DNA from: a virus
Taxonomy: Duplodnaviria > Caudoviricetes
DNA: 64,000 bases
Strand: one strand, 5' to 3'
Virus record (IMG/VR): IMGVR_UViG_3300035698_017721
Location: 1,175 to 65,174 of that record
A program made the position numbers and the translations under genes. The notes beneath the pieces are model-generated. The model saw only the letters and a program-made list of their open reading frames with translations. It did not search any database and was not told the DNA's origin. Below, piece after piece: positions 44,407-61,266 of this stretch. Every line of letters begins with the position of its first letter. The stretch's first letter is position 1.

Positions 44407-45129
44407 ATGATAGAAAATAATATAGTGCCATTTGTACTTACTTTTCTACCTGCCCTCGTGTATGCTATCATATTATATGCATCGTTTCCAAGGAAGACCG
44501 TTAGTTTAAAGATCTCATTTCTTCATTTTTTGATGGGTGCTATCAGTACAACGGCGGTCCTTGCCTTCCAATGGATCTTTCCTGAATTTCAAAATCCGGT
44601 ATCTAGGAACTTCATATTTGCCATGTTCTCGATGGCATTCTTACAAGTAGCATTCTTAGAAGAGTCAATGAAACTCTTGTTCTATAAGTTTACTGAGATG
44701 TATCGAGGAGTCATTCCAAGTATGTATTCGGTGATGTTCTATGCTATGTCGGTCTCAATGGGATTTGCCGTTGTTGAGAATATGAGATATGCCGGAAGAT
44801 ATGGTGATGAGGTATTGATCGCCCGGGCAACTACTGCCGTTGTATTACATATGCTTACAGGTTTGATGATGGGATATTTCATATCTCTAGGCATCTGGAA
44901 AAAGAAGAAACACTTATATAAGATACTCGGATTAGGTGCAGCAACGTTCATACATGGATTGTATGACTTCAATCTAATGATTTCAGAACAATGGAGATGG
45001 CCAGGTCTAATGATTAAGACCGGTTTTGGTATTGATACAAAATGGATATTGGGTGCAGGAATGGTTTGTACCGCTTTGATGTTTTATCACATTGGGATAC
45101 TAAGAGCACGACGATTCAGAAAAAAGTGA
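44407..45129 (+). CDS. PrsW-family intramembrane protease
   Basis: EESMK, GFAVVEN, RA..AVVLH, HGLYD. Confidence 0.85.
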   Translation: MIENNIVPFVLTFLPALVYAIILYASFPRKTVSLKISFLHFLMGAISTTAVLAFQWIFPEFQNPVSRNFIFAMFSMAFLQVAFLEESMKLLFYKFTEMYRGVIPSMYSVMFYAMSVSMGFAVVENMRYAGRYGDEVLIARATTAVVLHMLTGLMMGYFISLGIWKKKKHLYKILGLGAATFIHGLYDFNLMISEQWRWPGLMIKTGFGIDTKWILGAGMVCTALMFYHIGILRARRFRKK

Positions 45130-45879
45130 TCTTATCTATGTCCACCTGCTGAAGGTGCAGAAGACTTCATATTCTCTGGAAAATTCGTAAACTTCCCATG
45201 AACGAAGTAAGGTACTTTTTCACAAGATGTACAAGTCAATATAGGAATCTCGATCTCTCGATCCTCTGCTTGAGCAGTTTGAATTTTAGATGCGAATTTA
45301 ACCATAACGGATGGAGTAAATACTTTACCACCACATTCGCAGTTTATCCAAGGTAAATCGTTGATACTAATTTTCGGTAATTCCATTATTTTCTTCTAGG
45401 TAAGGATTAAGTATGAGGTCTATGAAATATACAAAATCATCCGGATCATGTTCGCCAGTACAAATATAATGACCAAACCATTCAGATTGAAAACGTGCCG
45501 CATCTTCTGCTTTAAGATGTGGCTTAACGTCTTTCCAAAGTTTTTCTGCTTTGTGTTGATTGTCTTCTCTCCTACACATACATTGACTAATGAACTCTTT
45601 TAAATCCCTTTGGAATTTTTTCTTAATCTGAAACTGTTGTCGGATTCATATGTGCTTGACTTTAACAAGAACTAGAATGAGGGCGTCGCTATTGATAATA
45701 TCGTTCTGCATAAACGAGCAGTGTCTTTCAACCGTACCAAAGCTAAGCCCTCACTTAGTCTCCTCCTTGCGGGAGTAGTCTTTTTTATTTCTCAAACCTG
45801 GAAACGCTCTATTGAGAATTACGCTTCTTCATTATGGTCACTTGCGGACGGGAAAAGATTATAAAAACGCCGCACTACG

Positions 45880-45975
45880 TGGTGGTTCTTGTAGGATTTG
45901 AACCTACGATCCTCCAGATCGTTTTTCAACTATCTGGTGCTCTGCAATAAATTGCCCAACTGAGCTTTAAGAACC
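45880..45975 (-). tRNA. tRNA-like RNA with no standard anticodon loop (extended stem capped by GAAA) and a D-loop insertion
   Basis: GGTTCTT/AAGAACC-A-CCA, T-arm GTAGG-TTCAAAT-CCTAC, CCAGAT-A-GTT-GAAA-AAC-G-ATCTGG. Confidence 0.7.
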
Positions 45976-46014
45976 TTAAATTGATCCCCTGTTTCCGAGG
46001 CAGTAGGAACGTGC

Positions 46015-46206
46015 TTTAGAGACACGGCCGATTTACACAAATTACATCTTAAGTTAAAGAAGCAAGGTAAGATTGTTACGCTCTTTCATGAGCCAGACAT
46101 TGACAACCAAGCAACATCTTTATGTATTTACGGAACTACTGAAGTTCGTAGATCACTTAGTCATTTGCCATTATCACTTAAAACAGCGATCAATGAAAAT
46201 GTCTAA
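46015..46206 (+). pseudogene. C-terminal half of a Pth2-like peptidyl-tRNA hydrolase; no start codon
   Basis: RDTADLHKLHLKLKKQGKIVTLFHEPDIDNQATSLCIYG...LSHLPL. Confidence 0.6.
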
Positions 46207-46768
46207 GCTAATAAATGACATGTCTAATTGTGAACAGACACAAGGCATGTCGGTACTTGAGCACGGAGAATCAGTGCTTCGGTATTACGAAGATCTCATT
46301 AACCATTTACAGAATGATACTCCATTACAATTAGAATGGAAACTCCCTGAATGGATTTATGATCACAAAGATTACATCCTAGAAAACTTAATGTCCGATG
46401 ATATTATCAAGGACTATCAGATCTTCCATGATTGTGGTAAGCCATATTGTCGAACAGTAGATGAGAACGGACGTCAACACTTCCCGGACCATGCAAAGGT
46501 TTCTGAGCAGACTTGGTTAGATGCCAGTGGAGATACACAGGTTGGTAAGTTGATCGGAATGGATATGGACATTCACTTATTAAAGGATGTGGGTGTTGCA
46601 GAGTTTGCTAAAAGACCAGAAGCGATGACATTATTGTTGACGGGACTCAGTGAAATTCATTCTAATTGTGCTATGTTTGGTGGTATAGATTCTACATCAT
46701 TCAAGATCAAGTGGAAACAAATAAATAAGCGTGGTAACGCCATCTTTAAAGAACTTCTTGTAAGATGA
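46193..46768 (+). CDS. HD-domain phosphohydrolase
   Basis: SVLEHG...FHDCGKPYC..HFPDHA. Confidence 0.75.
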   Translation: MKMSKLINDMSNCEQTQGMSVLEHGESVLRYYEDLINHLQNDTPLQLEWKLPEWIYDHKDYILENLMSDDIIKDYQIFHDCGKPYCRTVDENGRQHFPDHAKVSEQTWLDASGDTQVGKLIGMDMDIHLLKDVGVAEFAKRPEAMTLLLTGLSEIHSNCAMFGGIDSTSFKIKWKQINKRGNAIFKELLVR

Positions 46769-46777
46769 AAAACACAA

Positions 46778-46897
46778 GGCACATCGTGAATATGAATGCG
46801 AGGAACAACTGCAGAAAGTACTCGTTGGATTATAGGCTCACGGAGGTTGGAAGTAGCCCTTCCACACACCTTGGGGGTTCGATCCCTTCATGTGCTG
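46778..46897 (+). ncRNA. About 120-nt tRNA-like RNA (acceptor and T-arm, with an enlarged interior)
   Basis: GGCACAT/ATGTGCT, GGGGG-TTCGATC-CCTTC, internal stems CGTGA/TCACG and TGGAAG/CTTCCA. Confidence 0.5.
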
Positions 46898-46900
46898 CAA

Positions 46901-46980
46901 GTCAGAATAGCTCAGTTGGTAGAGCACTTGATTACTTCGGTAATCTTGAGGTCGGTGGTTCGAACCCATCTTCTGACACA
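46901..46980 (+). tRNA. tRNA-like RNA with the anticodon loop replaced by a C(UUCG)G hairpin
   Basis: GTCAGAA/TTCTGAC; normal D and T arms; GATTAC-TTCG-GTAATC. Confidence 0.7.
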
Positions 46981-46983
46981 ATT

Positions 46984-47059
46984 GCCTGGATAGCTCAGTT
47001 GGTTAGAGCGTTGGAGCTTCGGGCTCTGAAGGTCGTGGGTTCGAACTACTCCGGGCACA
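46984..47059 (+). tRNA. tRNA-like RNA with a UUCG-type anticodon arm and a short T-stem
   Basis: GCCTGGA/TCCGGGC; TTGGAGC-TTCGG-GCTCTGA. Confidence 0.6.
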
Positions 47060-47065
47060 ACAAAT

Positions 47066-47139
47066 GGGGCTGTAGTTCAGCTGGTAAGAACGCCGATCTC
47101 TAAAATCGGATGTCGCGGGTTCGAGCCCCGTCAGCCTCG
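47066..47139 (+). tRNA. Amber suppressor tRNA (anticodon CTA)
   Basis: CCGAT-CTCTAAA-ATCGG; complete cloverleaf; G73. Confidence 0.85.
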
Positions 47140-47144
47140 CAAAT

Positions 47145-47219
47145 GGGAATATAGCTCAGTCCGGTTAGAGCGGGAGTCTCTAAAACTCTTCGTCGTGGGT
47201 TCGAATCCCACTATTCCTT
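47145..47219 (+). tRNA. Amber suppressor tRNA (anticodon CTA)
   Basis: GGAGT-CTCTAAA-ACTCT; complete cloverleaf. Confidence 0.85.
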
Positions 47220-47248
47220 CTACATTTATTAACCCTAAAAACAAAGCC

Positions 47249-47275
47249 ATGAAATAGGTAAGCAGAGGACCATAA
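47249..47275 (+). promoter_or_regulatory. Mini-uORF M-K-(TAG)-V-S-R-G-P-stop
   Basis: ATG AAA TAG GTA AGC AGA GGA CCA TAA after an A-rich leader. Confidence 0.45.
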
Positions 47276-47337
47276 TTTGAATCGAGTGAATCGAAGAGTA
47301 CAAACAATTCAAACAACAAAATTCAAAAACAATAGTC

Positions 47338-47739
47338 ATGAACGACACAACAGTTAAAGCAGAAAAAATAATCGTAGAAGCAACACCAGAAAACGTGCAA
47401 ATGGTTCTCGATAAAATCAAGGAATTCACAACAGAGAAGGGATACCAGATCAAAGGTGATTTCAAGTTCAACGGAAAACTCGAGTTTCCAAGTCGTAACC
47501 AAGAAAAGGTTCTTCGTAGATACCTCACCAGATTAAACTGGAAGGTAACAATGTCGCAAGCAAACCGATTCTTACACGCTCTCAAGAGATACACCGATTT
47601 TGAAGGTCGTATCGAAATCTCAGAACGTGAAAAAGGAATCCAGAAAGCTCGTAAGGACTGGAAGTATGCAAGAGAACGTCAAGAACTTTTGCTCAAGTCT
47701 TACAAAGAAACCAAAGCAGGTTTCTACCCAAGTCTGTAA
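47338..47739 (+). CDS. Hypothetical basic protein
   Basis: 133 aa, A-rich leader, followed by a terminator. Confidence 0.65.
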   Translation: MNDTTVKAEKIIVEATPENVQMVLDKIKEFTTEKGYQIKGDFKFNGKLEFPSRNQEKVLRRYLTRLNWKVTMSQANRFLHALKRYTDFEGRIEISEREKGIQKARKDWKYARERQELLLKSYKETKAGFYPSL

Positions 47740-47758
47740 GCACATCTTCATAATAATG

Positions 47759-47785
47759 AAAAGGGCCTCGAAAGAGGCCCTTTTT
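47759..47785 (+). terminator. Intrinsic terminator
   Basis: AAAAGGGCCTC-GAAA-GAGGCCCTTTTT. Confidence 0.85.
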
Positions 47786-47811
47786 CGTTTAACCAAAACG
47801 ATATATAAGAT

Positions 47812-48306
47812 ATGGAACATCTTAAAAAATGGGAGAGCTTCAACGAAGCGTACGATTATGATAATAATTCTGGGGAAGAATTCTGGGGAGATGCTGGAGC
47901 AGGTGTTTTACCTATCTGTAAAGGTACCGGTAGAATATTACTTGGCCTAAGATCTGGACTTGTTAACGAACCGTATACCTGGGCCGGGTTCGGCGGTATG
48001 ATTGACGACGATGAAGAATTAGCAAACCCAGAGCTTGCGGCCAGAAGGGAGTTTGAAGAAGAAGCTCATTATATGGGGAAGGTAGACATGATTGAGTGTG
48101 AACAATTTACCAGTGATGGAGGAGGATTCAAATATTACAATTTTATAGGTGTGATCGATGAAGAGTTTACTCCTGTATTATCTGATGAATCAGACGATTA
48201 TCAATGGGTTACTCTGACGGAATTACACGATCAGGATAATAAACACTTTGGACTAGTTGATGTAATGAAAAAGAACATGAACATAATTAAGAAGTACGCA
48301 AAATGA
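47812..48306 (+). CDS. NUDIX hydrolase
   Basis: GFGG....NPELAARREFEEEA. Confidence 0.85.
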   Translation: MEHLKKWESFNEAYDYDNNSGEEFWGDAGAGVLPICKGTGRILLGLRSGLVNEPYTWAGFGGMIDDDEELANPELAARREFEEEAHYMGKVDMIECEQFTSDGGGFKYYNFIGVIDEEFTPVLSDESDDYQWVTLTELHDQDNKHFGLVDVMKKNMNIIKKYAK

Positions 48307-49058
48307 AGCATTTAAAAAAATTTATATCTATGTTTGAATCGGAGAAGATTCTCGATCTGGATGAGTCAATTGCCGATGAACAAATACACAAAGCCATCTT
48401 TATGATTGGTGGTGCAGGGTCCGGTAAGTCGACAGCAGCCAAGAAAATGTTTGAAGGTACTTTGAAGTTCGTTGACTCTGACAAATTCGTACAGTTCCTT
48501 TTGAAGAAGAAAGGTCTATCCCTGGTTTTCGATAAATCAAAGCCTGAAGAATATGCAGCAAAAACTAAATTCCGTCGCCAAGCAAAAGAATTAGAGACTT
48601 CCAAATTTGGACATTTGGTAGATGGCTTACATAGTATCGTATTAGATGGTACTGGTAGAAACCGCGATAAGATCAACCGTCAGTATGATGCGTTACTTGG
48701 ACTAGGCTACGACTGTTACATGATTTATATCAACACGGATGTTGAAGTTGCAGTAGAACGAAATGCCAAGCGAGAACGTGTAGTTCCCGAGGATATTGTA
48801 AGAGCACAGTATCATGATTTACAAGCTAATATTCCGGATTATAAAAAAAAGTTTGGTGCTAATTTCTTTGAATATAAAACTGGTGAGACTGATAAAACGC
48901 TGAATAAAATCTCAAATAAGATATTACAAGCACCTTATGAAAATGAAGCTGGATTTGTATTAAGAGATCTTATGAAGGAAAATCATTTGAAATATCTACA
49001 TGAACTGAATGTGCAACAGTTAGGAACGTTAATGCGGAACATTAGATTAACGGATTAA
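48303..49058 (+). CDS. Zeta-toxin/AAA_33-like P-loop kinase
   Basis: GGAGSGKST, VDSD, VLDGTG, ERNAKRERVVP. Confidence 0.75.
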   Translation: MKHLKKFISMFESEKILDLDESIADEQIHKAIFMIGGAGSGKSTAAKKMFEGTLKFVDSDKFVQFLLKKKGLSLVFDKSKPEEYAAKTKFRRQAKELETSKFGHLVDGLHSIVLDGTGRNRDKINRQYDALLGLGYDCYMIYINTDVEVAVERNAKRERVVPEDIVRAQYHDLQANIPDYKKKFGANFFEYKTGETDKTLNKISNKILQAPYENEAGFVLRDLMKENHLKYLHELNVQQLGTLMRNIRLTD

Positions 49059-49100
49059 CTGCGTATGATTTGGATATATAAAGAGAAATATAATGAAAGA

Positions 49101-49469
49101 AGGATGAAGTCAGTGCTGTTGGTAATGTTAGTATTTTTAAGTACTTCGGTAAACGCTCAAGTAGATCCACCCGATAGTGCAGATGAATTTGGTTGGTTAC
49201 GTTGGGCCGTAATATTACTTTTAGGTTTTGTTGGTACCGGTGGTGCAACATTCTTTGCTTTTGTAAAAGGAGCACATGAAAGTCGAATTAAAGATAAGGA
49301 TGCAGAAATTAAAAGACTTGCAACAAGAGCAACTGAACAGCAACATGCTTTAGAACGTCTACAGACTGATAAAGATGCCTTGAACAAGGATATGCAAGAG
49401 AAAGTTATTCCAGCTCTAACGAGCGCAAGCGACCTTATTAGAACCTTCTTAAATAGCAGTAAGAAATGA
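49101..49469 (+). CDS. Signal peptide + TM + coiled-coil protein
   Basis: MKSVLLVMLVFLSTSVNA, TM helix, heptads. Confidence 0.55.
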   Translation, partial: RMKSVLLVMLVFLSTSVNAQVDPPDSADEFGWLRWAVILLLGFVGTGGATFFAFVKGAHESRIKDKDAEIKRLATRATEQQHALERLQTDKDALNKDMQEKVIPALTSASDLIRTFLNSSKK

Positions 49470-49885
49470 GAGGTCAAACAGAAGATATTAGACATCAGCT
49501 TGATGTCGCTTGTAAAGAACTAACTAGCTGCGTTCATGATTTCAAGATCCAATGTGGTCTTGATGATTGGAAAGAGAAAGTTGTGTCGATCACAGATCAG
49601 TTTACAGAGATCTTTCCAGACGTTATGGCCAAGGTTGCATTTCCAGAGAAAGCAAAAGGTAGTCGTACGATCATTATAAAGGCTAAAGCGGGATCTAAGT
49701 TAGATCCACACAAGATGATTCCTCTTCGCTTTGTTTATGTTGTCCACGGGGACCAGAGAGATGAAAGAGGTGTAATAGTTTTGAATGAGGATGAGGGAAT
49801 GTCTATTCAACCATTTGTTGAATCATCCATGTATTTTAAAGTGGATACGAAGTTGATCATGGAGATTGAAGATGAAACCATATAA
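49466..49885 (+). CDS. Cupin-like protein
   Basis: KAGSKLDPH...FVYVVHG...LNEDEGMSIQP. Confidence 0.5.
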   Translation: MRGQTEDIRHQLDVACKELTSCVHDFKIQCGLDDWKEKVVSITDQFTEIFPDVMAKVAFPEKAKGSRTIIIKAKAGSKLDPHKMIPLRFVYVVHGDQRDERGVIVLNEDEGMSIQPFVESSMYFKVDTKLIMEIEDETI

Positions 49886-49887
49886 TT

Positions 49888-50313
49888 ATGAATGAAGTAC
49901 AACAAAAGGTTCAAGTCGAAGTAGATCACCTTACAGGTTTAATAAGTGAACTACAACAGGTAAATCTGTTTCTAACATTATTAGAAAATCCTGATTGTCC
50001 CATGTTCGTTGCCTATGTTCACCCGGATGGTCATTTTCGTTACGTCAATAAAGTGTTTGCTAATGCCCTTGGATATTCTAAGGAAGAAATTTATAGTAAA
50101 CATTGGGCCGAATTCATGAAGCCTGCGGAATCTGCTCGAGTACGAGCAGATTATCTTGCATCGAGTGATTCTAAGACACCATTTCTAAATTACGATACAA
50201 TGTACCAAACCAAAGACGGTAAGGATCTACCTTTAAGATGGTACACAAGTCCAATGCATAATCACAGTAACGAAGAGAATGTTACGATTTGTTTTTCAAT
50301 GATAATTGATTAA
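49888..50313 (+). CDS. Stand-alone PAS-domain protein
   Basis: DGHFRYVNKVFANALGYSKEEI...TKDGKDLPLRW. Confidence 0.8.
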   Translation: MNEVQQKVQVEVDHLTGLISELQQVNLFLTLLENPDCPMFVAYVHPDGHFRYVNKVFANALGYSKEEIYSKHWAEFMKPAESARVRADYLASSDSKTPFLNYDTMYQTKDGKDLPLRWYTSPMHNHSNEENVTICFSMIID

Positions 50314-50885
50314 AGCTTAATCCAAGCGCAATATTTGCCTTGTCTCTTATAATCTTCTGCCATCCAGATTACGTTTTTTCTGTATAATACAGGATCAAAT
50401 TCTACAACGATACCGTTTTTAGTAGATGAAGTGAACATATCACCTTTCATCAAATTCCAAATAATATTACGACCTGGTGAGTTATTACCGGTCACTGGTA
50501 GGTTCTCAAGAAGATACTTACGAAACTCTGGAGTAGCTTTAACCATATAATATTGGTCAATTGTATAAATGGAAGCATTAAAGAAATAGTAACTATTATC
50601 TGGTCTGAATCGTTTTAAACTTGACTCTGATACAAAATCAGTGCCCTTAACATCAATATAGCATTTCACTCCATCTAAATTGATAAACCAAAGGTCACCA
50701 TCAACAGCATTTGCTTCCACTTGCCGATTCCATTCTTCCGACCATTTTTCAATGTCTTTGTCAACGGTTGGTCCTATACCATATCCCAAGTTCGGTATAA
50801 TTCCTTCTTTTAAAGCTCGTAATACAGACTCTTCCCCAAACAGTCCGAAATAAAATCGTTCGTCAAATGTTGTTAGTGCTTCCAT
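50310..50885 (-). CDS. Putative PD-(D/E)xK nuclease
   Basis: GEE...DGDLW...YIDVKG. Confidence 0.45.
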   Translation of the reverse strand: MEALTTFDERFYFGLFGEESVLRALKEGIIPNLGYGIGPTVDKDIEKWSEEWNRQVEANAVDGDLWFINLDGVKCYIDVKGTDFVSESSLKRFRPDNSYYFFNASIYTIDQYYMVKATPEFRKYLLENLPVTGNNSPGRNIIWNLMKGDMFTSSTKNGIVVEFDPVLYRKNVIWMAEDYKRQGKYCAWIKL

Positions 50886-50949
50886 GTTACCTTATATCAA
50901 CGGAAAAAGGAAATGTTTCCGGATATATAAATAAACGTATCCTATTAAG

Positions 50950-51243
50950 ATGAAATTGAAACGATTTTCAGACTACGGTCAAAGTAGTCAACATACAATA
51001 AAACCAATCGTAGAAGACGCATTGGATGACTTCGAACCTGGTGAAGATGACGAGGATATTGAAGAGGTTAAAGTACAACCTAATGAATGGTCAGAGCGCG
51101 AAATTGAAAATCCTGAACCACAAGATCCATGTTCAGAATATATCACCAACAAGATTGGTCGACTAACCGAAGAAGGATACGATGATGTTCAAGCAAAGAA
51201 TATTGCTGAACGTATGGCCAAGCGAAGAGGCTTCAAAATATAA
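50950..51243 (+). CDS. Small acidic protein with CTS-like N-terminus
   Basis: MKLKRFSDY; GATATATA upstream. Confidence 0.55.
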   Translation: MKLKRFSDYGQSSQHTIKPIVEDALDDFEPGEDDEDIEEVKVQPNEWSEREIENPEPQDPCSEYITNKIGRLTEEGYDDVQAKNIAERMAKRRGFKI

Positions 51244-51253
51244 AGAATACACA

Positions 51254-51511
51254 ATGAAATTAAAACGATTTAACAACCTCAATGAAGGTGAAGGAGGATT
51301 CGGTATAGGTGACGATGGATGGGACGAGGATGACTTGTCAGATCTTATTGAATTAGCAGCTGAAGTTCAAGGCATGCATTATGAACTTACAAATAGTGTG
51401 AGAGATTCTGGTGGCGTTTCTGGAGATACTATAGAGGATCTTGCATCCGATTTAGAAGATTATGCCGAACGTTTTATGTATATTGTAAATGAATTAAGAG
51501 AGCGATCATGA
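51254..51511 (+). CDS. Small acidic protein with CTS-like N-terminus
   Basis: MKLKRFNNLNE. Confidence 0.55.
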   Translation: MKLKRFNNLNEGEGGFGIGDDGWDEDDLSDLIELAAEVQGMHYELTNSVRDSGGVSGDTIEDLASDLEDYAERFMYIVNELRERS

Positions 51512-51864
51512 AACTAAAAAGATTCAAAGACATCAACGAGGAACAAACTTACGTTGAAAAGTATAAGCCGAAACCAATGAAAGACTGGGATGGTAAATCT
51601 GCAGATATTCCGATGGGTAAAGTCGGGAAATTTGAGTTGATTTATCAAATTTACAGTGATGTAATGTGGGGTAACGGTATTCAAGGTTCAATTAGAACGA
51701 TTCCAACTAATTATTATGTTGCTTCTGTAGATGTAGATGGTTCATTAGAATGGGAAGACATGGAAGGTCAGACTAAAGACCTACGTACTAATCATAAAGA
51801 TGAAATCACAGCATTATATGATAAGGTCAAGAAAACACCACAATCTGATTCAGCAGGAATATGA
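51508..51864 (+). CDS. Small protein with CTS-like N-terminus
   Basis: MKLKRFKDINE. Confidence 0.55.
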   Translation: MKLKRFKDINEEQTYVEKYKPKPMKDWDGKSADIPMGKVGKFELIYQIYSDVMWGNGIQGSIRTIPTNYYVASVDVDGSLEWEDMEGQTKDLRTNHKDEITALYDKVKKTPQSDSAGI

Positions 51865-52347
51865 AACACTTACAACTATTCGAAAATTACGGCATGATTG
51901 AAAAACTAGCCACAACGGTCAATCCTTTGCTGTGGGTGATGAAGAAGATCTAAAACCTATTTATAGGAATATAGATACAACTCATGTACGTGTAGTAGGT
52001 GATGATAGTGATGCTATCCTAGCAAAAATTCAACAAGCACTTGAGGCTAAGGAAAACCTTATAATCGGAGATGCTGAAAATTTAGATGACCATCCTGAAG
52101 TAATGCAAACTGTAAAAGCTGCTCTTGATGCCAAAGAAACTTTGATCATTTTGGTAGGCTTGAAATTGAATCAAGCGATTAAAGACAGAGTTTATGTCAT
52201 TGAATAAAACAGAAATAATGAATTTAGGTCAGATAAAAGATGACGTTGCTGCTTTAGCACCTGATGATTATAATGAAGTTATTGATGCTATTATTGGATT
52301 ATTGGAAGAATCCAAAGATTAAATAGTACCAGTATCAAAAGTATTAC

Positions 52348-52387
52348 TATCTTTGTACGGTAGAAACGAAACAAACGTTGATATATA
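52348..52387 (+). promoter_or_regulatory. Tandem promoter elements: Bacteroidota -7 box TATCTTTG (52348) and phage GATATATA box (52380)
   Basis: Exact motifs; the same pair occurs at 61086 and 61112. Confidence 0.65.
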
Positions 52388-52400
52388 GAATAAGAATAAC

Positions 52401-52475
52401 ATGAGAATCGAGATCAACATACATGGAAACCATTGGCATCAGGCAACTGAAAGCTCGTGTAATCCTGTACTCTGA
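52401..52475 (+). CDS. Putative attenuator leader peptide MRIEINIHGNHWHQATESSCNPVL
   Basis: Ile x3 (including ATA), His x3 and Trp clustered in the first 13 codons; lies between promoter and terminator. Confidence 0.7.
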   Translation: MRIEINIHGNHWHQATESSCNPVL

Positions 52476-52493
52476 TTTAGAATTTCAAAATAA

Positions 52494-52535
52494 GAGAAAG
52501 GCCCGAGCATTAAATTGTTCGGGCCTTTCTCGTTT
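52494..52535 (+). terminator. Terminator hairpin of the His/Trp/Ile attenuator
   Basis: GAGAAAGGCCCGAGCA-ttaaat-TGTTCGGGCCTTTCTC-GTTT, ending just before the first tRNA. Confidence 0.75.
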
Positions 52536-52537
52536 AT

Positions 52538-52613
52538 GCACTATAGACCATCTGGCGAGTGGTAATGGCTTCCAAACCCATTAGCTGCGGGTTCAAATCC
52601 TGCATGGTGCCCA
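52538..52613 (+). tRNA. tRNA-Trp (CCA), atypical
   Basis: GCACTAT/ATGGTGC; loop TTCCAAA; C-C mismatch in anticodon stem. Confidence 0.6.
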
Positions 52614-52641
52614 AGGTTGATAGACCTTAAAACTATCAAAC

Positions 52642-52715
52642 GCGTTCGTAGCTCAGTTGATTAGAGCACTGCTCTCCAAAAGCAGGTGTCGCAGGTTTGA
52701 GTCCTGCCGGGCGTG
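52642..52715 (+). tRNA. tRNA-Trp (CCA)
   Basis: CTGCT-CTCCAAA-AGCAG; G73. Confidence 0.85.
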
Positions 52716-52771
52716 CCGCAGCTTTTTCGTACCTGAGTTAGATATATACTTTAAATCTAACCAAGTATGGA

Positions 52772-53650
52772 ATGCCAAGAAAGGAAAAAGAGTACCACGT
52801 CATTTATAAAACGACGTGTAAATTGAACGGGAAGTATTATGTAGGAATGCATTCTACGGATGATTTGAAGGACGGATATTTAGGATCTGGAACATATCTT
52901 AGAAAATCTATACGGAAGCATGGAAAAGAGAATTTCGAATATGAAATTTTAGGGTTCTTTGAAAATAGAAAAGCGTTAATTGATCGTGAGATTGAATTAG
53001 TTAATGAAGATCTGATACAAGATTCAATGTGTATGAATCTTAAACCGGGAGGTAAAGGTGGTTTAGGCGGTATGAAAACAGTTAGAGACAAAAATGGTTT
53101 TTGCTTTAATGTATTCAAAGATGATCCACGTTTAAAAACGGGTGAGGTTGTCAGTGTAATGAAAGGATTGATTATTGTAGTTGATGAATTCGGTAAAAAA
53201 CATGCGGTTAAAAAAACAGATGCACGATATTTATCCGGCGATTTAGTATCTCCATTAAAAGGTAAATTGATGGCAAGAGATAAAAATGGTAAAGTTAGCA
53301 TATTATCAACAGATGATCTTCGTTTAAAAACCGGTGAATTTGTACAGCAAACAACAGGATTTGTGACGGTTAAAGATAAAAAAGGAAAAATATTACATGT
53401 GTCTATTAACGATAAGAGATATTTGTCCGGTGAATTAGTAAGTATATGGAAAGATCGTAAACATTCAGAAGAGACAAAGAAAAAAATAGGATTAAAGAAT
53501 TCAATAGCTCAACAAGGTAATAAGAATTCGCAATTTGGTAAGATTTGGATCTATAATGTTGAGGAACAAAGGTCAAAGAAAATATCATCGGATGAATTAA
53601 GGGAACATTTGGATCTTGATTGGATAAAAGGTAGAAAAATAAACTTTTGA
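52772..53650 (+). CDS. GIY-YIG homing endonuclease within the tRNA array
   Basis: VIYKTTCKLNGKYYVGMHST..YLGSG; D.RL(K)TGE and D.RYLSG repeats. Confidence 0.85.
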   Translation: MPRKEKEYHVIYKTTCKLNGKYYVGMHSTDDLKDGYLGSGTYLRKSIRKHGKENFEYEILGFFENRKALIDREIELVNEDLIQDSMCMNLKPGGKGGLGGMKTVRDKNGFCFNVFKDDPRLKTGEVVSVMKGLIIVVDEFGKKHAVKKTDARYLSGDLVSPLKGKLMARDKNGKVSILSTDDLRLKTGEFVQQTTGFVTVKDKKGKILHVSINDKRYLSGELVSIWKDRKHSEETKKKIGLKNSIAQQGNKNSQFGKIWIYNVEEQRSKKISSDELREHLDLDWIKGRKINF

Positions 53651-53930
53651 TTTCGAAACTTTTTGTGATATGTATGATACATAGTGTATAAACATAACAA
53701 TACACAAAATGGAATTATCAGAAGTAAACAGTAATGCAACAATAGACGTAGAATCTTTAGATGGGTGGGAAGATGGAGAAATATCTATTAAGTCAACAAG
53801 GAAATTGCGAAGTTTTCTTGAAACATATTTAGGAAATAGCCAGTTGAAATTGGATAACATATCTGTCAAATCACTAGGTAGATATGGTAATTTTCAGAGT
53901 TTTTGTGATTGTAGTGATGATTTTTAATAT

Positions 53931-54007
53931 GGTGGTTGTAGTTCAGTTGGTTAGAACGCCTGGTTGTGGTCCAGGAGGTCGTCGGTTCGAGCCCGATTTT
54001 CCACCCA
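53931..54007 (+). tRNA. tRNA-His (GTG), G-1:C73
   Basis: CCTGG-TTGTGGT-CCAGG; two T-T mismatches in acceptor stem. Confidence 0.8.
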
Positions 54008-54125
54008 AAAGACGAACGGTCTAATTCTTAAGTAGCGGCGAGCGAATAAGAATGTGACACGAATTCAGCAAGTCTTACAAACCGTTTCAGATCGTACGAT
54101 TTTCGGAGCGTGAATGGCTATTTAT

Positions 54126-54204
54126 GGTGCATGTAGCTTAGTTGGTCTAAAGCGCTAGTTTGTGGAACTAGAGATCGTGGGTTCGAGACCCATCTTGCAC
54201 ACCA
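54126..54204 (+). tRNA. tRNA-His (GTG), G-1 with A73 and encoded CCA
   Basis: CTAGT-TTGTGGA-ACTAG; GTGCATG/CTTGCAC-A-CCA. Confidence 0.85.
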
Positions 54205-54216
54205 AAATAAAAGGTT

Positions 54217-54690
54217 ATGGAAATTGAAATTGTTGAAGAAGAATCTTACGAAGGTGAAATTGCTCGATTAAGGTTTGAGGAACGCCGAGAGGATTTCCTT
54301 AAGAATGGTAATGATTTTGTAAGGAATGCGTCAATTTATGATGATGCTTTATCATATACATATGGTTTAGCAGAGGAACATTCGGAAACCGTTGGTATTC
54401 CTGTTCTTCGTTTAGCACGCCTAATGGCTTTAGTAGTCATGCGATCTAAACTTGGAATGGATATTGTAGATCTGAATTTACCACCAACCTTTAATTCCAC
54501 AAGGGTTGTTAAGAAAAATACTGGTCGTATTGCTCCAACTGTTGCGATTCTTGACAAGCTGGAGAAGGTTGCATATTTGATCAACACATCAGATGAAGTG
54601 TTTTACTTCAGTAGTGTGAAAGGATATAAAGATTTTAGAAGGGTATATGCTCCCCTCGTTAAAGAAGCATATTGTAAATATAAAGACTGA
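54217..54690 (+). CDS. Hypothetical protein
   Basis: 157-aa ORF between tRNA-His and HisRS. Confidence 0.55.
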   Translation: MEIEIVEEESYEGEIARLRFEERREDFLKNGNDFVRNASIYDDALSYTYGLAEEHSETVGIPVLRLARLMALVVMRSKLGMDIVDLNLPPTFNSTRVVKKNTGRIAPTVAILDKLEKVAYLINTSDEVFYFSSVKGYKDFRRVYAPLVKEAYCKYKD

Positions 54691-54695
54691 AAGTC

Positions 54696-55317
54696 ATGGT
54701 TAGAGGAACAAGAGTACTTATTGGAAACGAGGCTATAAACTACGTTAAGGCGATAGATTCGATACGCTCATGTCTTCATCGCAGCAGGCTATCAAGAAAT
54801 CATTTTACCTAATCTGTGGGAACAGAAGACGTTCACAGATAAGGCTGGTCCAGAGATCCTGGGTCAGATGTATACATTCAATGATAAGAAGGGTCGGGAG
54901 ATCTGTTTATTGCCAGAGGCTACGGCCGTTGTCCAAGAGCTATTCAAAACTCAATGGCAGAATGCAATGAAGAAACCGGTCCGAGTGTTCTACACTCAGA
55001 AATGTTATAGGTACGAAAGGCCACAGAAAGGACGATACAGGGAATTTACCCAGATCGGATTGGAAAGGCTCGGAGGCACTGATGGCAAGGAAGAGGTAAT
55101 AGGACTCCTTAGAAGCTGTCTAAACAGCTTTAATATTGATTATAAGCTCAACGATACGGTCAAACGTGGTCTAGACTATTATGTCGAAGACGGGTTTGAA
55201 GTAGAGGTGGAATCCCTTGGTGCACAAAAGCAGATCGCCGGTGGTGGTCGTTACGATTGTGGAATTGGGTGGGCCATCGGTTTGGATCGGATTTTACTTC
55301 TACTTAATCAAAAATAA
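54696..55317 (+). CDS. hisS: Minimal histidyl-tRNA synthetase catalytic core (about 206 aa) with a +1 frameshift near 54768
   Basis: MVRGTR; GYQEIILPNLW..MYTFNDKKGREICLLPEAT; YRYERPQKGRYREFTQIGLE; RGLDYY; GGGRYD; GWAIGLDRI. Confidence 0.8.
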
Positions 55318-55380
55318 ATCAATATTTCTGGTCTATTAAGCCCAATAGCAAATTGTTTTTAGATATATAAAATAAAAACA

Positions 55381-56076
55381 ATGGAAAGTGGAATATACAA
55401 AATAACAAATTTGCTAAACGGTAAAATTTATATTGGAAGCACAAGTAATTTTGATTATCGAAAATATAGTCATGAAAACAAAGAAAATAACACCGTTATA
55501 TCACGGGCCATTATTAAATATGGTTGGTCTAATTTTTCCTTTGATATATTAGAATATTGTAAACCAGAATTTCTTGCTGAAAGAGAAAATTATTATTTTG
55601 ATTTATTACAACCATTTGTTGAAAATAACGGATATAACATATTAAGAACTGCAACAAGTAATGGGTGGTTGGGTCATAAACACACTGAGGAATCTAAAAA
55701 GAAAATGTCAATTAGTCGTTTAGGCTTAATACCGTGGAACAAAGGTAAGAACGGGTTACAAAAAATGAGTAATGAAGAACGGATAGCAAGATCTAAAAAA
55801 TATAAAGGAACCGGTAATCCCTTCTATGGAAAAACTCATACAGAGGAAACAAAGAAAAAATTAAGTGAACATGCTAAAGTAAGAGATATGTCACATTGTA
55901 ATAAAAAGGTTATACAAATTGACAAAAAAAATCTAAGCGAAATTAAAATTTGGGATAGTATTTCAGATGCCAGTGAAGAAATATTTGGTGATCGAAAACG
56001 TAGCAACATAACAGCAGCATGTAATGGCAGAGTAAAATCAGCCGGTGGATTCTATTGGTCGTACTTGGGCAATTAG
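55381..56076 (+). CDS. GIY-YIG homing endonuclease (NUMOD3/NUMOD1)
   Basis: GIYKITNLLNGKIYIGST, GYNI, NPFYGKTHTEE, SAGGFYW. Confidence 0.88.
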   Translation: MESGIYKITNLLNGKIYIGSTSNFDYRKYSHENKENNTVISRAIIKYGWSNFSFDILEYCKPEFLAERENYYFDLLQPFVENNGYNILRTATSNGWLGHKHTEESKKKMSISRLGLIPWNKGKNGLQKMSNEERIARSKKYKGTGNPFYGKTHTEETKKKLSEHAKVRDMSHCNKKVIQIDKKNLSEIKIWDSISDASEEIFGDRKRSNITAACNGRVKSAGGFYWSYLGN

Positions 56077-56138
56077 TAGATGGGTTAGCACGCAAAGCTT
56101 ATATCTTTGTAAATCAGGTTCAAGTCCTGGACTGCCTA
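56067..56138 (+). tRNA. tRNA-Ile (TAT), overlapping the endonuclease stop codon
   Basis: CAAAG-CTTATAT-CTTTG; T-arm TCAGG-TTCAAGT-CCTGG; weak D-stem. Confidence 0.55.
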
Positions 56139-56144
56139 CAAAAC

Positions 56145-56179
56145 AAAAAAGCGGAGTCCTTAATTGGATTCCGCTTTTT
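56145..56179. terminator. Bidirectional terminator closing the Trp/His/Ile unit
   Basis: AAAAAAGCGGAGTCC-ttaatt-GGATTCCGCTTTTT. Confidence 0.75.
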
Positions 56180-56468
56180 CATTTGATCTATTTTCTCGAT
56201 CAAACTTTACGATCTGTCTTCTAAGAAGTTCCACCTCAAGTGCATCTTTGGTGAGATTTACTACATGTAAACCACCTTGTGAACTGCTACCATAAAATAT
56301 ACCATATACCATGCCATCAGCTCGTTTGGTATCATACAGAACACAATTGTCACCGCCTTGGTCTTCACAACTAACGTTGGCACTATAAGCTCCAACATCT
56401 CGAGGTTCAATTTTTACATCACAACTCATGATTGTGAACATTACGATAATCGCTATAAGTCTTTTCAT
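56160..56468 (-). CDS. Putative lipoprotein
   Basis: MKRLIAIIVMFTIMSC. Confidence 0.55.
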   Translation of the reverse strand: MKRLIAIIVMFTIMSCDVKIEPRDVGAYSANVSCEDQGGDNCVLYDTKRADGMVYGIFYGSSSQGGLHVVNLTKDALEVELLRRQIVKFDRENRSNEKAESN

Positions 56469-56488
56469 CGTACAAAAGTACGAATTTT

Positions 56489-57571
56489 TTAAATCACAAC
56501 GTTATTCAAAGAGAAGCTCACATCTCCTAATACGGCTTCAGATTCATTATCGTTACTTGCTTCAAGATCTGCTGAAGCAATTCCAAACATTGCTATTTCA
56601 TGATTGGGTACTATCTGTGGATCATTCCAGAAAACGCCTGCAACGTGAAAAGATGGGTAAAGATCAATATTGTGGTAATATGTCTTTGGTGAGCCAGTGG
56701 CAATGGTGAATTGACCAAGAACGTTTAGGTCTATTGCGTTGTCATATATCCAAATGTCTACTGGACCACCTACAAATGCACCGGTCCATACTAATTGAAC
56801 CGGTATTCCTGGATTTAAAGCTTCTATATCTTCGCATCTACCAAGGATTGTAGTTACACTCCATCCCTCAGCAACCTCAGTTGGTCCTGGTGGCAAAGTA
56901 TTCTTATCCAGCCAAGGAATTTCTACTATACCAATTTCATCTATTTCAATTTCCCATCCAGTTTCTATCCAGACAAAGCCCCCGAATCCGAATATCCACA
57001 TATCAGGAATTCCATCTGTGTTAGTATCGAAAAAGCCAAGTGCTAGTTCCGAAGGATTATATCCTTCTTGAGTTACAGTCATACAATAATATGGTAATAC
57101 AGTAGCTCTACCACATGCTGTTGAATGTATAGTTAGTGCTTCGACTACTCCTACATCTGACCATTCGGCAGAAATTAAGTCAGGCGATGTAAATGTTATT
57201 ACATTGCCTCCTCCAAAATCTATTATAAGATTCCAAAGTCCATCAATTTTATTAACGGTCATTGGAAACGAAAAATTTTCTAACTGGAATACTGGATTAT
57301 TTTCTAAATCAGTTGTAATATATTCTAATCTGAATAGGAATTCTCCTCCGTCTGCATCGGGAAATGATAACCAGACATCTAAACCAGTTTCAAAATCACA
57401 TCCCGCAAGAGCACTTGCATTTCCACCACCTGGAGCACCTATTAGTTGCTTTGCTGCATACATCCTCATAGCCTCAAAGAGTTCTCTGTCTCGTTCAGCT
57501 TTTAACTTCTGCATTTTCTGAGCTTCGGATAAATGCTTGTTATCTGGTCTGTTTCTAAATTGATCGTTCAT
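56489..57571 (-). CDS. Hypothetical acidic beta-rich protein (possibly a virion protein)
   Basis: 360 aa; GATATATA box immediately upstream. Confidence 0.55.
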   Translation of the reverse strand: MNDQFRNRPDNKHLSEAQKMQKLKAERDRELFEAMRMYAAKQLIGAPGGGNASALAGCDFETGLDVWLSFPDADGGEFLFRLEYITTDLENNPVFQLENFSFPMTVNKIDGLWNLIIDFGGGNVITFTSPDLISAEWSDVGVVEALTIHSTACGRATVLPYYCMTVTQEGYNPSELALGFFDTNTDGIPDMWIFGFGGFVWIETGWEIEIDEIGIVEIPWLDKNTLPPGPTEVAEGWSVTTILGRCEDIEALNPGIPVQLVWTGAFVGGPVDIWIYDNAIDLNVLGQFTIATGSPKTYYHNIDLYPSFHVAGVFWNDPQIVPNHEIAMFGIASADLEASNDNESEAVLGDVSFSLNNVVI

Positions 57572-58349
57572 GCTTTATATATCCCTTACATAAAAAAAAG
57601 GGACCTAAAAAGGTCCCCTCTCAATTTTAAATGTCATAAAGTTTACCGTTCGTAAGAACGACATTCCTCATAATAGGTACTAATACCCATTTGTCAGGGA
57701 AATCTGCCAATCGACAAGATTCCTTTGCCAAGCGTAAGGCTTGGGCTTCAGCTTTCCACATTCTAACTTCATCAGTCGTAATAAATGTGGAGGGAGCGTG
57801 ATAACCATTTACATGGATAACATCTACTCGCCAGTAACGTAGTTTACGTTTCATTTGAACCAAAGGCTCAAATAGGCGGTGATGTATTCTGCGGTAGTAT
57901 TTTTATCATCATCGTATATATCTCAAATGTAAACGTTAAATTCGATTATTATGAAAGAGATTCTCCTATTACTTATTGAGTCCGGTGCTGAGTTCAATAA
58001 AAACAAAACACACAATGGTGATTTGTGGAAGATCGAAAATGTTAGAGACGGTGTTGACATTTATTGTTCTCTCGACGGAAAGTTTAAATACATGTGCCCA
58101 TCTGAAAAACATTGGTCAAGAAAAAAATAATGAAATGACTGTAATAAAATGTAAATCAGGAGTTGTCTTTTCGGCTTGTGTAACCAAGCATATTGATGCA
58201 AGATGGAAACTACAAGAGCTCTATTATAAGGACCAAGGCTGTACTGTTGAAACACAAGAAAGCGTAACATTTGGCGATTGTAATTGTGAACATTGTAATA
58301 CGTTAAATCACGAGTACGAAGAACTTATTGAATCCGTAATAAAAGAATC

Positions 58350-59576
58350 ATGGACGTAAAAAGAAAAATCATAATGGACATCAATAAAAGAAACGACATG
58401 GGCGTAGAAAGAAAAATCATAATGGGTGGAGGTACATTCCAGCCGATAGCAAATCATTTATCCTTATCGGCTCCGGCCTTTGGTAATACAGCCAAACAAC
58501 TTTATGAATGGATGAAGGATATTCCTGGAACAGAATTGGCTCTTACCAAAATGGCCGATCCTAACAGTAATATGGTTACAAATCAAGACGTGGAAAAATA
58601 TGTCTTGTCTCTATTGAAAGATCCGACTGTTAAATTGATCGTGTGTAGCGTTGCCTTCTGTGACTATGAATACACTGATGTTAATTTCCATGGTGACCGA
58701 TTCAAGGAAGTACATCCTACAGAGAAGATCATTGACCGGATTAGAAGAGTAAGACCCGATATTTTTCTAGTTGGATTTAAGACTACTACGAATGCTACAG
58801 TAGAAGAACAGCATTTGATTGGACTTAAAATGATGAAGAGATCTAAATGTAATTTGGTGTTGGCCAATGATACGATCACACGTAAGAACATCATTATCAC
58901 ACCAGAGGAATCTTATTATGGAGAGCATTACAATAATCGTAATCGTACTTTATATGAGTTGCTCAATATGATTGAGATGCGGATGGATGCGACTTATACC
59001 AGGACAGAATTCATAGAATGTGCTAATACATTTAAGATCAATATACTTTCACCCAATATGAGAAGTGTGCTTCACTATCTTGTAAATCATGGTGGATTCA
59101 TTGAGAACAACGGTAATGGATTTACACCTGGACATTTCTGTACACGATTGCAATCTGATGAGTTTGCATCGTCACAAAGGAAGGCAGACCACAATAAAGT
59201 ATTTACTGAAGGTGTTTCACTGGTCAAAGTGGTAGACGACAGATTCCTGGTTACAGGAACTAGAAAGGCTAGTGTCGGTGCTAAGAGTCAGTGGGAGTTG
59301 CTAAAAGCCTACCCAGAGTATCAGAACATCATTCATACACATAGTCCCATTAGATCCAGTTCATCGATACCTAGAGTATCCCAGAAGCCATATCAATGCG
59401 GTAGTCTCGAATGTGGAATGAACACGCTCAATGGAATGAAAGATTTCGGGGATGGTATTCAAGCAGTTTACCTTGATAAGCATGGACCGAACATCATGTT
59501 CAAGAATGATACCCCAGCTTATATGGTAGTAGAATTCATGCGAGACAATTTCCATATCGGTAGGAAAACGACATGA
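58350..59576 (+). CDS. CoaB/DFP-like ligase domain fused to a class II aldolase domain
   Basis: GGGT..PI, AFCDY, FLVGFKTTT, CNLVLAND; TPGHF, IIHTHSP, DKHG. Confidence 0.7.
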   Translation: MDVKRKIIMDINKRNDMGVERKIIMGGGTFQPIANHLSLSAPAFGNTAKQLYEWMKDIPGTELALTKMADPNSNMVTNQDVEKYVLSLLKDPTVKLIVCSVAFCDYEYTDVNFHGDRFKEVHPTEKIIDRIRRVRPDIFLVGFKTTTNATVEEQHLIGLKMMKRSKCNLVLANDTITRKNIIITPEESYYGEHYNNRNRTLYELLNMIEMRMDATYTRTEFIECANTFKINILSPNMRSVLHYLVNHGGFIENNGNGFTPGHFCTRLQSDEFASSQRKADHNKVFTEGVSLVKVVDDRFLVTGTRKASVGAKSQWELLKAYPEYQNIIHTHSPIRSSSSIPRVSQKPYQCGSLECGMNTLNGMKDFGDGIQAVYLDKHGPNIMFKNDTPAYMVVEFMRDNFHIGRKTT

Positions 59577-59670
59577 GAATAATTTCAAGTTTCGGAAATT
59601 AAACGTAACCTTCTGTATCTGTATACGTATAGTGCTTATCTTTACTAACCATAGATAAAATAGATAATTC

Positions 59671-60246
59671 ATGTTTTATACGTTCGACAAAAAGACCCTA
59701 AAATACACAAAGGTTACCAAACCCATTACTGCTTATCTTTTATTCTACACGATCTTTGTAGTGGGAACTGGTTATATGACTGGTCGAGATATATGTCAGG
59801 ATAATCAAGTGATGGTTGAGTCAGAAGCGATTCCAATTGTTCTTAATGAAGAATTAGAATTCTCTGAAGATGCATTATGGGAATTACTGAATGATCTTAA
59901 TGTACGATACCCACATATAGTGATGGCCCAAGCTCGAGTTGAAACTGGTCATTATAAGAGTAAGATCTTCATGGAGAACAACAATTTGTTCGGAATGAAG
60001 TGTGCAGCACAAAGGTGTACAACCCACAAAGGACCTATGAATGGTCATGCAAAATATGATTCATGGCAAGAGTCGGTTATTGACTATGCTCTATACCAAA
60101 CAAGCTACCTAAGGAAAGCTGACACGGAGGATCAATATATCGAAGCATTGGGTGGTAGTTATGCAGAAGATGGAAACTATATGAAATTAGTTTCTGGTCA
60201 AACAGACTCAGTGTTGGAAAAATATGTTATCTTAGCAAGCGATTAA
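59671..60246 (+). CDS. GH73-like glucosaminidase (peptidoglycan hydrolase) with N-terminal TM
   Basis: AQARVETG, NNLFGMK, YDSWQESVIDY, YAED. Confidence 0.8.
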   Translation: MFYTFDKKTLKYTKVTKPITAYLLFYTIFVVGTGYMTGRDICQDNQVMVESEAIPIVLNEELEFSEDALWELLNDLNVRYPHIVMAQARVETGHYKSKIFMENNNLFGMKCAAQRCTTHKGPMNGHAKYDSWQESVIDYALYQTSYLRKADTEDQYIEALGGSYAEDGNYMKLVSGQTDSVLEKYVILASD

Positions 60247-60449
60247 AATGAATGAAGTAAGAGATTTACAGTTTTTAGGTTTTTAAAAAACAAACCGCTG
60301 AAAAAATGATTTCAAGCGGTATTGATGGTACACAATTAACAGAGGACGATGTTGGTCGTACGGTTGCGTTATCTCCTAATTTAGGAATATAAAGATCTCA
60401 TTGAGAAAGGCTTCGTATACTTTTAAATTCTTCATCCTGTTTTTCTTGT

Positions 60450-61014
60450 TTATTGCCAATATTCATCATCATCCTCATCATATCCATAATCAGGATCTCC
60501 TTTTAAATAATTGAATATCACATTACCATCAGAGTCTTCCTCAAAAAAGAATTCTTTACCCTCTCCAATAGCACCTTCTGCCCATTCACCATTTTCACCA
60601 TCGATCAAATGCATATACACAAAGACCCAATCTGGTGAACCCTTGTCTTTCCAACCAAATTCACCATTCCAAGTTTCTTCTTCCTTTACTTCTTGAAACA
60701 AAACTTTCGGGGCCCAGATTCCATAGCCATATTGATTACTCATACCCGACCATTCAGACTGTGCTTCAATATCATAGTTTTCGTGTACTGGTGCATACAT
60801 CTTTTTTCCGTTTACTTTAACCAGTATATAAACATCAGGACCGTATCGAGAAATTATATTATTCTCCTTTAATTTTTCTGATGCCGCCTTTGCATCTTTT
60901 TCATCATTAAATAAAAAATCCGGGTTTAATTTTTTAAACACCTCGAATAACTTCTTGTGAATATTCAGTAGATTCACTTTCGTTGAGCTGAGTAAATGAT
61001 TTAATGTGTTTCAT
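60450..61014 (-). CDS. Acidic protein with CTS-like N-terminus; +1 frameshift near 60945
   Basis: MKHIKSFTQLNES from ATG 61014 joins the 175-aa ORF if one base is removed. Confidence 0.5.
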
Positions 61015-61085
61015 CTATAAATTGGTTAGTTCACTTTATATATTGAAATTTTTCCACCAAAAACAATCAGATCAAAATATATTTA

Positions 61086-61119
61086 TATCTTTGAAACAAT
61101 TTGAAGCAAGAGATATATA
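61086..61119 (+). promoter_or_regulatory. TATCTTTG (-7 box) and GATATATA promoter pair
   Basis: Same arrangement as 52348-52387. Confidence 0.65.
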
Positions 61120-61133
61120 ACACACAAGAAACA

Positions 61134-61202: not shown

Positions 61203-61224
61203 AAATTTAGATAACGATTTTTAA

Positions 61225-61264: not shown

Positions 61265-61266
61265 AT

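Follow-up and report, generated by a model that had tools for sequence, protein, structure and literature searches.

A putative leader-peptide attenuator in front of phage tRNA genes and its counterparts in related phages

Phage tRNA genes are commonly regarded as constitutively expressed cargo, and a locus in which a very strong terminator stands directly in front of such genes raises the question of what might control their transcription. In this study, we analysed a 64 kb window (the whole stretch of DNA examined; the parts of the two cassettes and the genes behind the first of them lie on its + strand) of the 65,174-base IMG/VR virus record IMGVR_UViG_3300035698_017721. CheckV puts the completeness of this record at 18%, and it is therefore a fragment of a phage genome several hundred kb in size. 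We propose that the segment 52380-52537 (cassette A, or site A) works as a leader-peptide attenuator, in which a translating ribosome decides whether transcription proceeds into the phage tRNA genes behind it. For site A itself we regard this reading as likely, and for the class of attenuators as a whole our confidence is higher; at site A its strongest support comes from a sister cassette in the same window (cassette B) and from related phages with leaders matched to their tRNA arrays and putative covarying antiterminators. We infer from these data the translation of the leader open reading frame (ORF), termination, pausing and the response itself.

Cassette A is arranged in the order promoter-like motif, mini-ORF, terminator and tRNA, whereas other genes of the window show the reverse order, with a terminator followed by a promoter. 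The promoter-like motif is an 8-nt A/T-alternating word at 52380-52387, 13 nt 5' of the leader ATG. The window holds 17 copies of it where 3.5 would be expected, a count reached in none of 100 shuffles; 11 of the 17 copies are located 2-32 nt 5' of the ATG of ORFs of at least 97 amino acids, and two precede the two leader ORFs A and B. Because so many copies precede the start codons of long ORFs, the motif seems to behave as a promoter or start signal of this phage. The leader ORF (52401-52475) consists of 24 codons and a TGA stop at 52473-75, and the region in front of it resembles that of the phage's long ORFs in being A-rich and without a Shine-Dalgarno sequence; a Shine-Dalgarno-like word was found at -20 to -5 in only 2 of 50 long ORFs of the window. 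This lack, together with words resembling a -7 box before the leaders of some relatives, suggests that the uncultured host may belong to the Bacteroidota.

Within the leader, codons 7-13 read ATA CAT GGA AAC CAT TGG CAT (52419-52439), exactly as the first-pass annotation of this DNA had described, and thus provide one isoleucine (codon 7), three histidine (8, 11 and 13) and one tryptophan codon (12). Among the 622 small ORFs of 15-60 codons on both strands of the window, the leader is the only one in which five of seven consecutive codons are drawn from ATA, CAY and TGG. The cassette ends in an intrinsic terminator (52494-52537) with a 16-bp stem (52494-52509 paired to 52516-52531; -29.9 kcal/mol on its own) and a U-rich tail; the stem ends 6 nt 5' of the tRNA-Trp gene and the tail reaches the tRNA. 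A 179-nt contig from a marine metagenome (X4, depth 2.9) matches 52395-52575 except for 2 nt missing at 52457. Such a gap, which could stem from faulty assembly, would make region 2 shorter and shift the leader frame after codon 19, past the codons with a regulatory role. Habitats that contain DNA of this phage include salt lakes.

The predicted folds of cassette A appear to follow the classical four-region logic of attenuators. The leader folds with -55.9 kcal/mol (z -9.1), and none of 200 shuffles did equally well. In the minimum-energy folds a long imperfect hairpin (hairpin I, 52402-52487; regions 1:2, the protector and possibly a pause hairpin) encloses the entire leader ORF and sequesters region 2 in the ribosome-free state. 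A protector stem had been foreseen in the first-pass annotation; the hairpin exists, although in another register, and the pairs that had been named for it (52438-42 with 52472-76, and CAGG with CCTG) are outside the minimum-energy fold. The 5-bp complementarity between 52453-52457 and 52504-52508 in the 5' arm of the terminator, which had been seen by eye and thought short, holds, and it proved to be the outer helix of a larger predicted antiterminator (regions 2:3, 52453-52508; -13.7 kcal/mol in constrained folding). The pairs of this structure are 52453-57/52504-08, 52459/52502, 52464-66/52499-501 and 52470-73/52493-96, in addition to an inner stem.

The predicted fold depends on the position of the ribosome in the manner expected of an attenuator. 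In a stall scan, we folded the nascent transcript as far as the loop of the terminator and masked 30 nt around each A-site codon in turn. With the A site on any of codons 3-13, 12 of the 16 bases in the 5' arm of the terminator are taken up by pairing with region 2 (52453-52481). The antiterminator gains -11.4 kcal/mol in stability with the A site on codon 7, -11.6 on codon 8 and between -7.5 and -8.1 on codons 10-13; the gain drops to -0.7 at codon 14 and does not go past -2.8 thereafter, the stop codon included. The last permissive codon is thus the last histidine codon, codon 13. When region 2 was dinucleotide-shuffled 500 times, the observed value was attained in a fraction of 0.010-0.020, and when 146 ordinary terminators from the window and 13 related loci were each given the same 42 free bases, 3.4% of them attained the -13.4 (12 of 16 bases paired) of site A. 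Run through the same script, the Escherichia coli leaders (NC_000913.3) gave -10 to -12 for thrL, -4 to -6 for hisL and -5 to -6 for trpL at their regulatory codons, and the fold strength of site A therefore matches or surpasses that of the three E. coli leaders. The attenuator proposed in the first-pass annotation, for which constrained folding had been named as a check, is in this respect supported in silico: the ORF, the cognate codons, the abutting terminator and a competitive, stall-dependent alternative fold are all present.

A second cassette of the same layout (cassette B, 61112-61259) is located near the end of the window, with a motif copy at 61112-19, a leader ORF at 61134-61202 and a terminator at 61225-61259. 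The leader has 22 codons, with five isoleucine and three arginine codons within codons 5-13, and behind the terminator there is a degenerate tRNA-like RNA and then an array with four tRNA-Arg genes and a tRNA with a CAT anticodon. In the stall scan the antiterminator is stabilised by -8 to -14 kcal/mol for A-site codons 4-13 and is lost from codon 14; codon 13, the last regulatory (arginine) codon, is again the last permissive one. The shuffle fractions are 0.008-0.038 and the fold has a z of -3.9. The degenerate RNA (61266-61345) has a good T arm and is called by neither ARAGORN nor Rfam. Further on, a tRNA with an irregular anticodon arm (61945-62013; 50 bits in Rfam, no ARAGORN call) overlaps the end of an HNH-type ORF (61391-61954).

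Is this arrangement found in other phages? A blastn search with 52300-56300 against a phage collection gave matches at the level of the tRNAs and of HisRS only, and an exact 22-nt anchor from tRNA-Trp had no matches in metagenome contigs. Searching with a pattern that combined the motif with both arms of the terminator led to seven viral contigs. Five of these (L003-L006 and L009) were dismissed as chance matches with no tRNA behind the match. The other two, L007 and L008, share one 29-codon leader in which 17 codons in a row specify His, Thr, Ser, Cys, Asp or Glu, and the array behind it encodes Ser, Ser, Thr, Cys, His and Thr tRNAs, followed further on by Ser, Glu and Asp tRNAs. A Ro-like protein encoded beside this array was used as a query and gave 25 loci. 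ARAGORN combined with a terminator scan then identified 51 places at which a terminator precedes a tRNA, and a fixed rule selected 29 records, 16 of them non-redundant. Two of the selected records (L020:14029 and L032:10214) fail both the match and the duplex tests and are regarded as false positives, probably not attenuators; they were retained in all counts.

The leaders of these cassettes fit their own arrays. In the match test, which counted tRNAs within 2 kb and thereby shortened several arrays, none of 200,000 permutations of the pairing of leaders with arrays matched the observed score of the 16 cassettes (z 4.7, or 4.3 without site A); site B did not enter this test, as there is no ARAGORN tRNA call immediately behind it. 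Seven of the 16 leaders ranked their own array first, and nine ranked it first or second. The match is concentrated where a stalled ribosome would permit the antiterminator, with 186 of 316 residues matched before the last permissive codon as compared with 30 of 112 after it (Fisher p 6.6e-9). It is also present at the codon level: of 107 informative codons, the array anticodons decode 73, where 55 would be expected (z 3.7). Of 20 cassettes, 12 have a leader complement to the 5' arm of the terminator that outperformed shuffles at p<=0.05, and in six of them the level was p<=0.01 (combined p 3e-12), and many cassettes of related phages thus appear, on sequence grounds, to carry covarying antiterminators. 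A start- and stop-bounded ORF is kept in every cassette; the leaders of different cassettes have no sequence in common, and the trait that they share is that each spells the amino acids of its own array. The window shares just 10 of its 92 ORFs with the related loci; therefore they are only distantly related, and none of the cassettes is a copy of another.

In relatives (L010, L011, L012, L014-L022, L030 and L032) a conserved promoter-like motif of about 17 nt is found 11-42 nt 5' of many tRNAs and of Y-RNA-like modules, for example at L010:16122 and L010:4388. In the window this motif occurs only inside coding sequence and is absent near the tRNAs. It may represent an internal promoter or a processing signal. 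Relatives also hold a gene for a Ro60-like (TROVE/vWA) protein (L008:764-2389 and neighbours) beside tRNA arrays and repeated Y-RNA-like modules, and its matches among the collected phages bear the annotation Ro-like RNA-binding protein.

The best named matches of two proteins are in the uncultured huge phages LR745206.1 (634,780 bp) and LR756511.1. LR745206.1 has 61 tRNA matches in several arrays, and three of the five array starts that we examined carry a cassette. In the first, 13 of 16 leader codons specify His, Lys, Phe, Ser and Trp, and the array encodes His, Phe, Trp, Lys, Arg and Ser tRNAs; in the second, 23 of 24 codons specify Asn, Leu, Met, Thr, Val, Ile and Arg, and the array consists of exactly those tRNAs; in the third, eight consecutive Pro, Gln and Asp codons precede an array of Pro, Asp and Gln tRNAs. 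At the remaining two array starts examined (L039 and L042) no leader-terminator cassette was found. At L039 (364200-369400 of LR745206.1) a promoter-like box of the leader type stands directly before tRNA-Met with neither leader nor terminator, and some arrays of this phage are therefore not gated. No tRNA was found within 41 kb around its Ro-like gene. In its accessible part, an article that discusses LR745206 (PMC9723777) is silent on leader-peptide control of tRNAs.

Several observations weigh against an attenuator at site A and have to be set beside this evidence. The leader holds just five regulatory codons, and these are interspersed; at the codon level site A taken alone has one of three informative codons decoded, against 0.9 expected, a comparison without power. 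The single-duplex test of leader against terminator 5' arm is not significant at site A (p 0.21) or at site B (p 0.17), and the antiterminator of site A is an interrupted multi-helix fold of -13.7 kcal/mol as compared with -27 to -30 for the terminator. The consensus terminator scan did not list the hairpin 52494-52531, owing to the tail rule of the scan. No ortholog of site A was found through its 91- and 157-amino-acid neighbour proteins in viral and metagenome contigs, and hence there is no covariation at site A. Among the relatives, 6 of the 16 leaders picked by the rule show little or no match excess, and in several the conserved motif of about 17 nt is located between the terminator and the first tRNA and also between tRNAs. 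Finally, the copies of the 8-nt motif at 52741 and 55362, which belong to two endonuclease genes inserted downstream, could independently transcribe the tRNA-His genes, the HisRS-like gene and tRNA-Ile. The two tRNA-Trp genes ahead of both copies would for this reason be the part most surely controlled by cassette A.

Of the other explanations, the one that survives best, though we consider it improbable, is that the hairpin is an ordinary, possibly bidirectional terminator closing the upstream block of genes (ORFs ending at 52207 and 52322), with a mini-ORF present by chance and tRNAs transcribed through leaky read-through. The terminator is indeed very strong and has A- and U-rich stretches on both flanks, the interval 52322-52494 showed no further terminator, and site A fails the simple duplex test (p 0.21). 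However, an ordinary terminator would not account for a promoter-like motif that is located upstream rather than downstream of it, nor for a codon cluster that is unique among the small ORFs of the window. Moreover, the layout is found a second time at 61.1 kb and again in relatives, the leaders agreeing with their arrays, and the constrained-fold score lies in the top 1-3% of the controls.

We give less credence to the idea of a free-standing small gene, encoding a micropeptide or a small RNA, that has its own promoter and terminator and no functional tie to the tRNAs behind it. Phage genomes contain many tiny ORFs, and motif, ORF and terminator do make a complete unit of about 150 nt. Yet genes of this kind would hardly have leaders that share no sequence and agree only in matching the amino acids of their own arrays, in a match that ends at the codon where the antiterminator is lost; furthermore, the terminator tails of sites A and B directly adjoin the tRNA and leave no space for a separate tRNA promoter.

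More doubtful again is a translation-independent RNA element, such as hairpins for the processing or stability of the tRNA precursor (an RNase III or RNase P entry site, or 5' protection) or a switch read by a protein or a tRNA. That the hairpin abuts the 5' end of the tRNA, where RNase P cuts, would suit such a role, as would the strong structure at both sites (z -9.1 and -3.9). An element of this kind would not require the start- and stop-bounded ORFs that every cassette keeps or the match at the amino acid and codon levels, and neither a T-box nor any other Rfam family was matched, the best being Thr_leader with 27.7 bits against a gathering threshold of 55. Least probable is that the leader senses decoding speed but has another output, perhaps of opposite sign, such as polarity of the Rho type or cleavage of an mRNA with a stalled ribosome. 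Termination at the hairpin is a predicted step; however, 12 of 20 cassettes have a covarying complement to the 5' arm of the terminator, and this complement, placed just past the footprint of the last matched codon, is what the classical mechanism predicts and is not needed otherwise.

According to the attenuator reading, transcription would start at the promoter-like motif and a ribosome would load on the start codon at 52401. In the absence of translation, hairpin I would keep hold of region 2, the 16-bp terminator would form and the polymerase would halt before tRNA-Trp. If charged tRNA-Ile(UAU), tRNA-His and tRNA-Trp are abundant, the ribosome would reach the stop codon and cover region 2, and the terminator would again form. 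Slow decoding of ATA, CAT or TGG at codons 7-13 would leave a stalled ribosome that covers region 1 only; region 2 could then pair with the 5' arm of the terminator and the polymerase would read through into the two tRNA-Trp genes and, with the help of internal promoters, as far as the tRNA-His genes, the HisRS-like gene and tRNA-Ile(TAT). As the output would raise the quantity that is sensed, the circuit would be a demand-driven homeostat for phage-supplied tRNAs. A wider interpretation, which we offer tentatively and believe to be less likely true than not, is that the cassettes form a viral sensor of the tRNA pool with one gauge per tRNA block, in which depletion of host tRNAs stalls a leader and turns on replacement tRNAs, here also HisRS; giant phages of several lineages would in this way possess a closed-loop device that works codon by codon and serves economy as well as counter-defence. 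The depletion could come from phage-induced shut-off, from a shift in codon demand or from defensive anticodon nucleases of the host.

The genes behind terminator A include those named in the first-pass annotation. They begin with two tRNA-Trp(CCA) genes (52538-52612 and 52642-52717; 35.3 and 59.3 bits in Rfam), which are followed by an inserted GIY-YIG homing-endonuclease gene (52772-53650) with its own motif copy (52741-48), two tRNA-His(GTG) genes (53932-54006 and 54127-54204), an ORF of 157 amino acids and a short HisRS-like gene (54696-55317). Then come a second GIY-YIG/NUMOD3 endonuclease gene (55381-56076; own motif at 55362-69), tRNA-Ile(TAT) (56067-56139), the reader of the ATA codon, and just behind it a terminator of 14 pairs (56146-56179) that closes the unit where it had been said to end. 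For the expected HisRS the assignment stands in part. A HisRS-type class II core is present at 54868-55317 (PF13393, E 6.8e-13; PF00587, E 3.7e-14) and makes up the recognisable gene, which is without an anticodon-binding domain, but the reading frame is split. Its first 24 codons, counted from the ATG at 54696, are followed near 54765-54772 by a switch to the +1 frame, which encodes the remainder with the core; ahead of 54868 this remainder lacks a start codon. The switch may reflect a sequencing error, a pseudogene or programmed frameshifting.

Elsewhere in the window, two tandem tRNAs with a CTA anticodon (47066-47220) are classed as amber suppressors by ARAGORN, and the genes of the window read through under table 11. 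Three successive small ORFs at 50950-51864 (starting at 50950, at about 51254 within 51182-51511, and at 51508) share a six-residue N-terminus and resemble a local paralogue family.

If the proposed mechanism is correct, giant phages would gauge decoding speed codon by codon and make tRNAs, here together with a synthetase, on demand. This would extend the logic of trp and his attenuation to products that are themselves the sensed molecules, to viruses and to leaders that list many amino acids, and would provide a direct and testable link between phage tRNA arrays and tRNA depletion in infection. For annotation, it would yield the rule that a leader predicts which tRNAs belong to one transcription unit, and for synthetic biology it would offer compact codon-specific sensors.

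How does cassette A compare with known systems? We found no published account of leader-peptide control of tRNA genes in the full-text literature, a search that covers subscription journals thinly and could have missed a publication. Among Rfam leader families the best match is the Thr_leader hit mentioned above (52470-52533, E 0.14), which spans essentially the terminator, and in 45000-64000 there is no T-box match at E<=1. Cassette A is thus probably a leader-peptide attenuator by its predicted mechanism, outside every curated family. The T-box riboswitch, as proposed for cassette A, senses tRNA charging and controls read-through of a terminator before genes of the translation apparatus; however, a T-box binds uncharged tRNA directly and without an ORF, whereas cassette A has an ORF.

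Two further systems resemble the proposed circuit in what they control. In bacilli, a His leader precedes hisZ and paralogues of hisS (PMC2965389, as far as its accessible text goes). As in cassette A, histidine codons stand before a HisRS-type gene and genes of the translation apparatus are attenuated; in the bacilli, according to the same portion of that source, the synthetase is the only target, whereas in cassette A the first and main targets would be tRNA genes and the HisRS-like gene is located 2.2 kb downstream behind an endonuclease gene. The trn tRNA operon of Anabaena is described in the available parts of two articles as silent and induced under translational stress (PMC8421152) and as controlled by the protein repressor TrcR (PMC10272220); the words attenuat-, leader and terminator do not occur in the text of PMC8421152 at hand. 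Within the limits of these partial texts, it shares with our reading of cassette A an accessory tRNA array that is turned on when translation is impaired, and differs in being cellular and repressor-controlled where cassette A is viral.

The closest mechanistic counterparts are the trpL, hisL and thrL leaders of E. coli. Like cassette A, they combine a short ORF that carries regulatory codons with three alternative structures (1:2 hairpin, 2:3 antiterminator and 3:4 terminator), their stop codon lies inside region 2, and their stall-scan profile is of the same type. The ilvGMEDA leader is multivalent and the synthetase genes pheST are under the control of the pheM leader; in cassette A, too, several amino acids would be sensed together, as in the thr and ilv leaders. 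The E. coli leaders target biosynthetic enzymes, whereas cassette A would target tRNAs and a synthetase, so that its output would act directly on the sensed pool, and, unlike them, it is viral and has relatives with leaders that list up to about 16 amino acids. What would be new relative to the known attenuators is therefore the targeting of tRNA genes, the viral setting and the sensing of many amino acids in the related phages.
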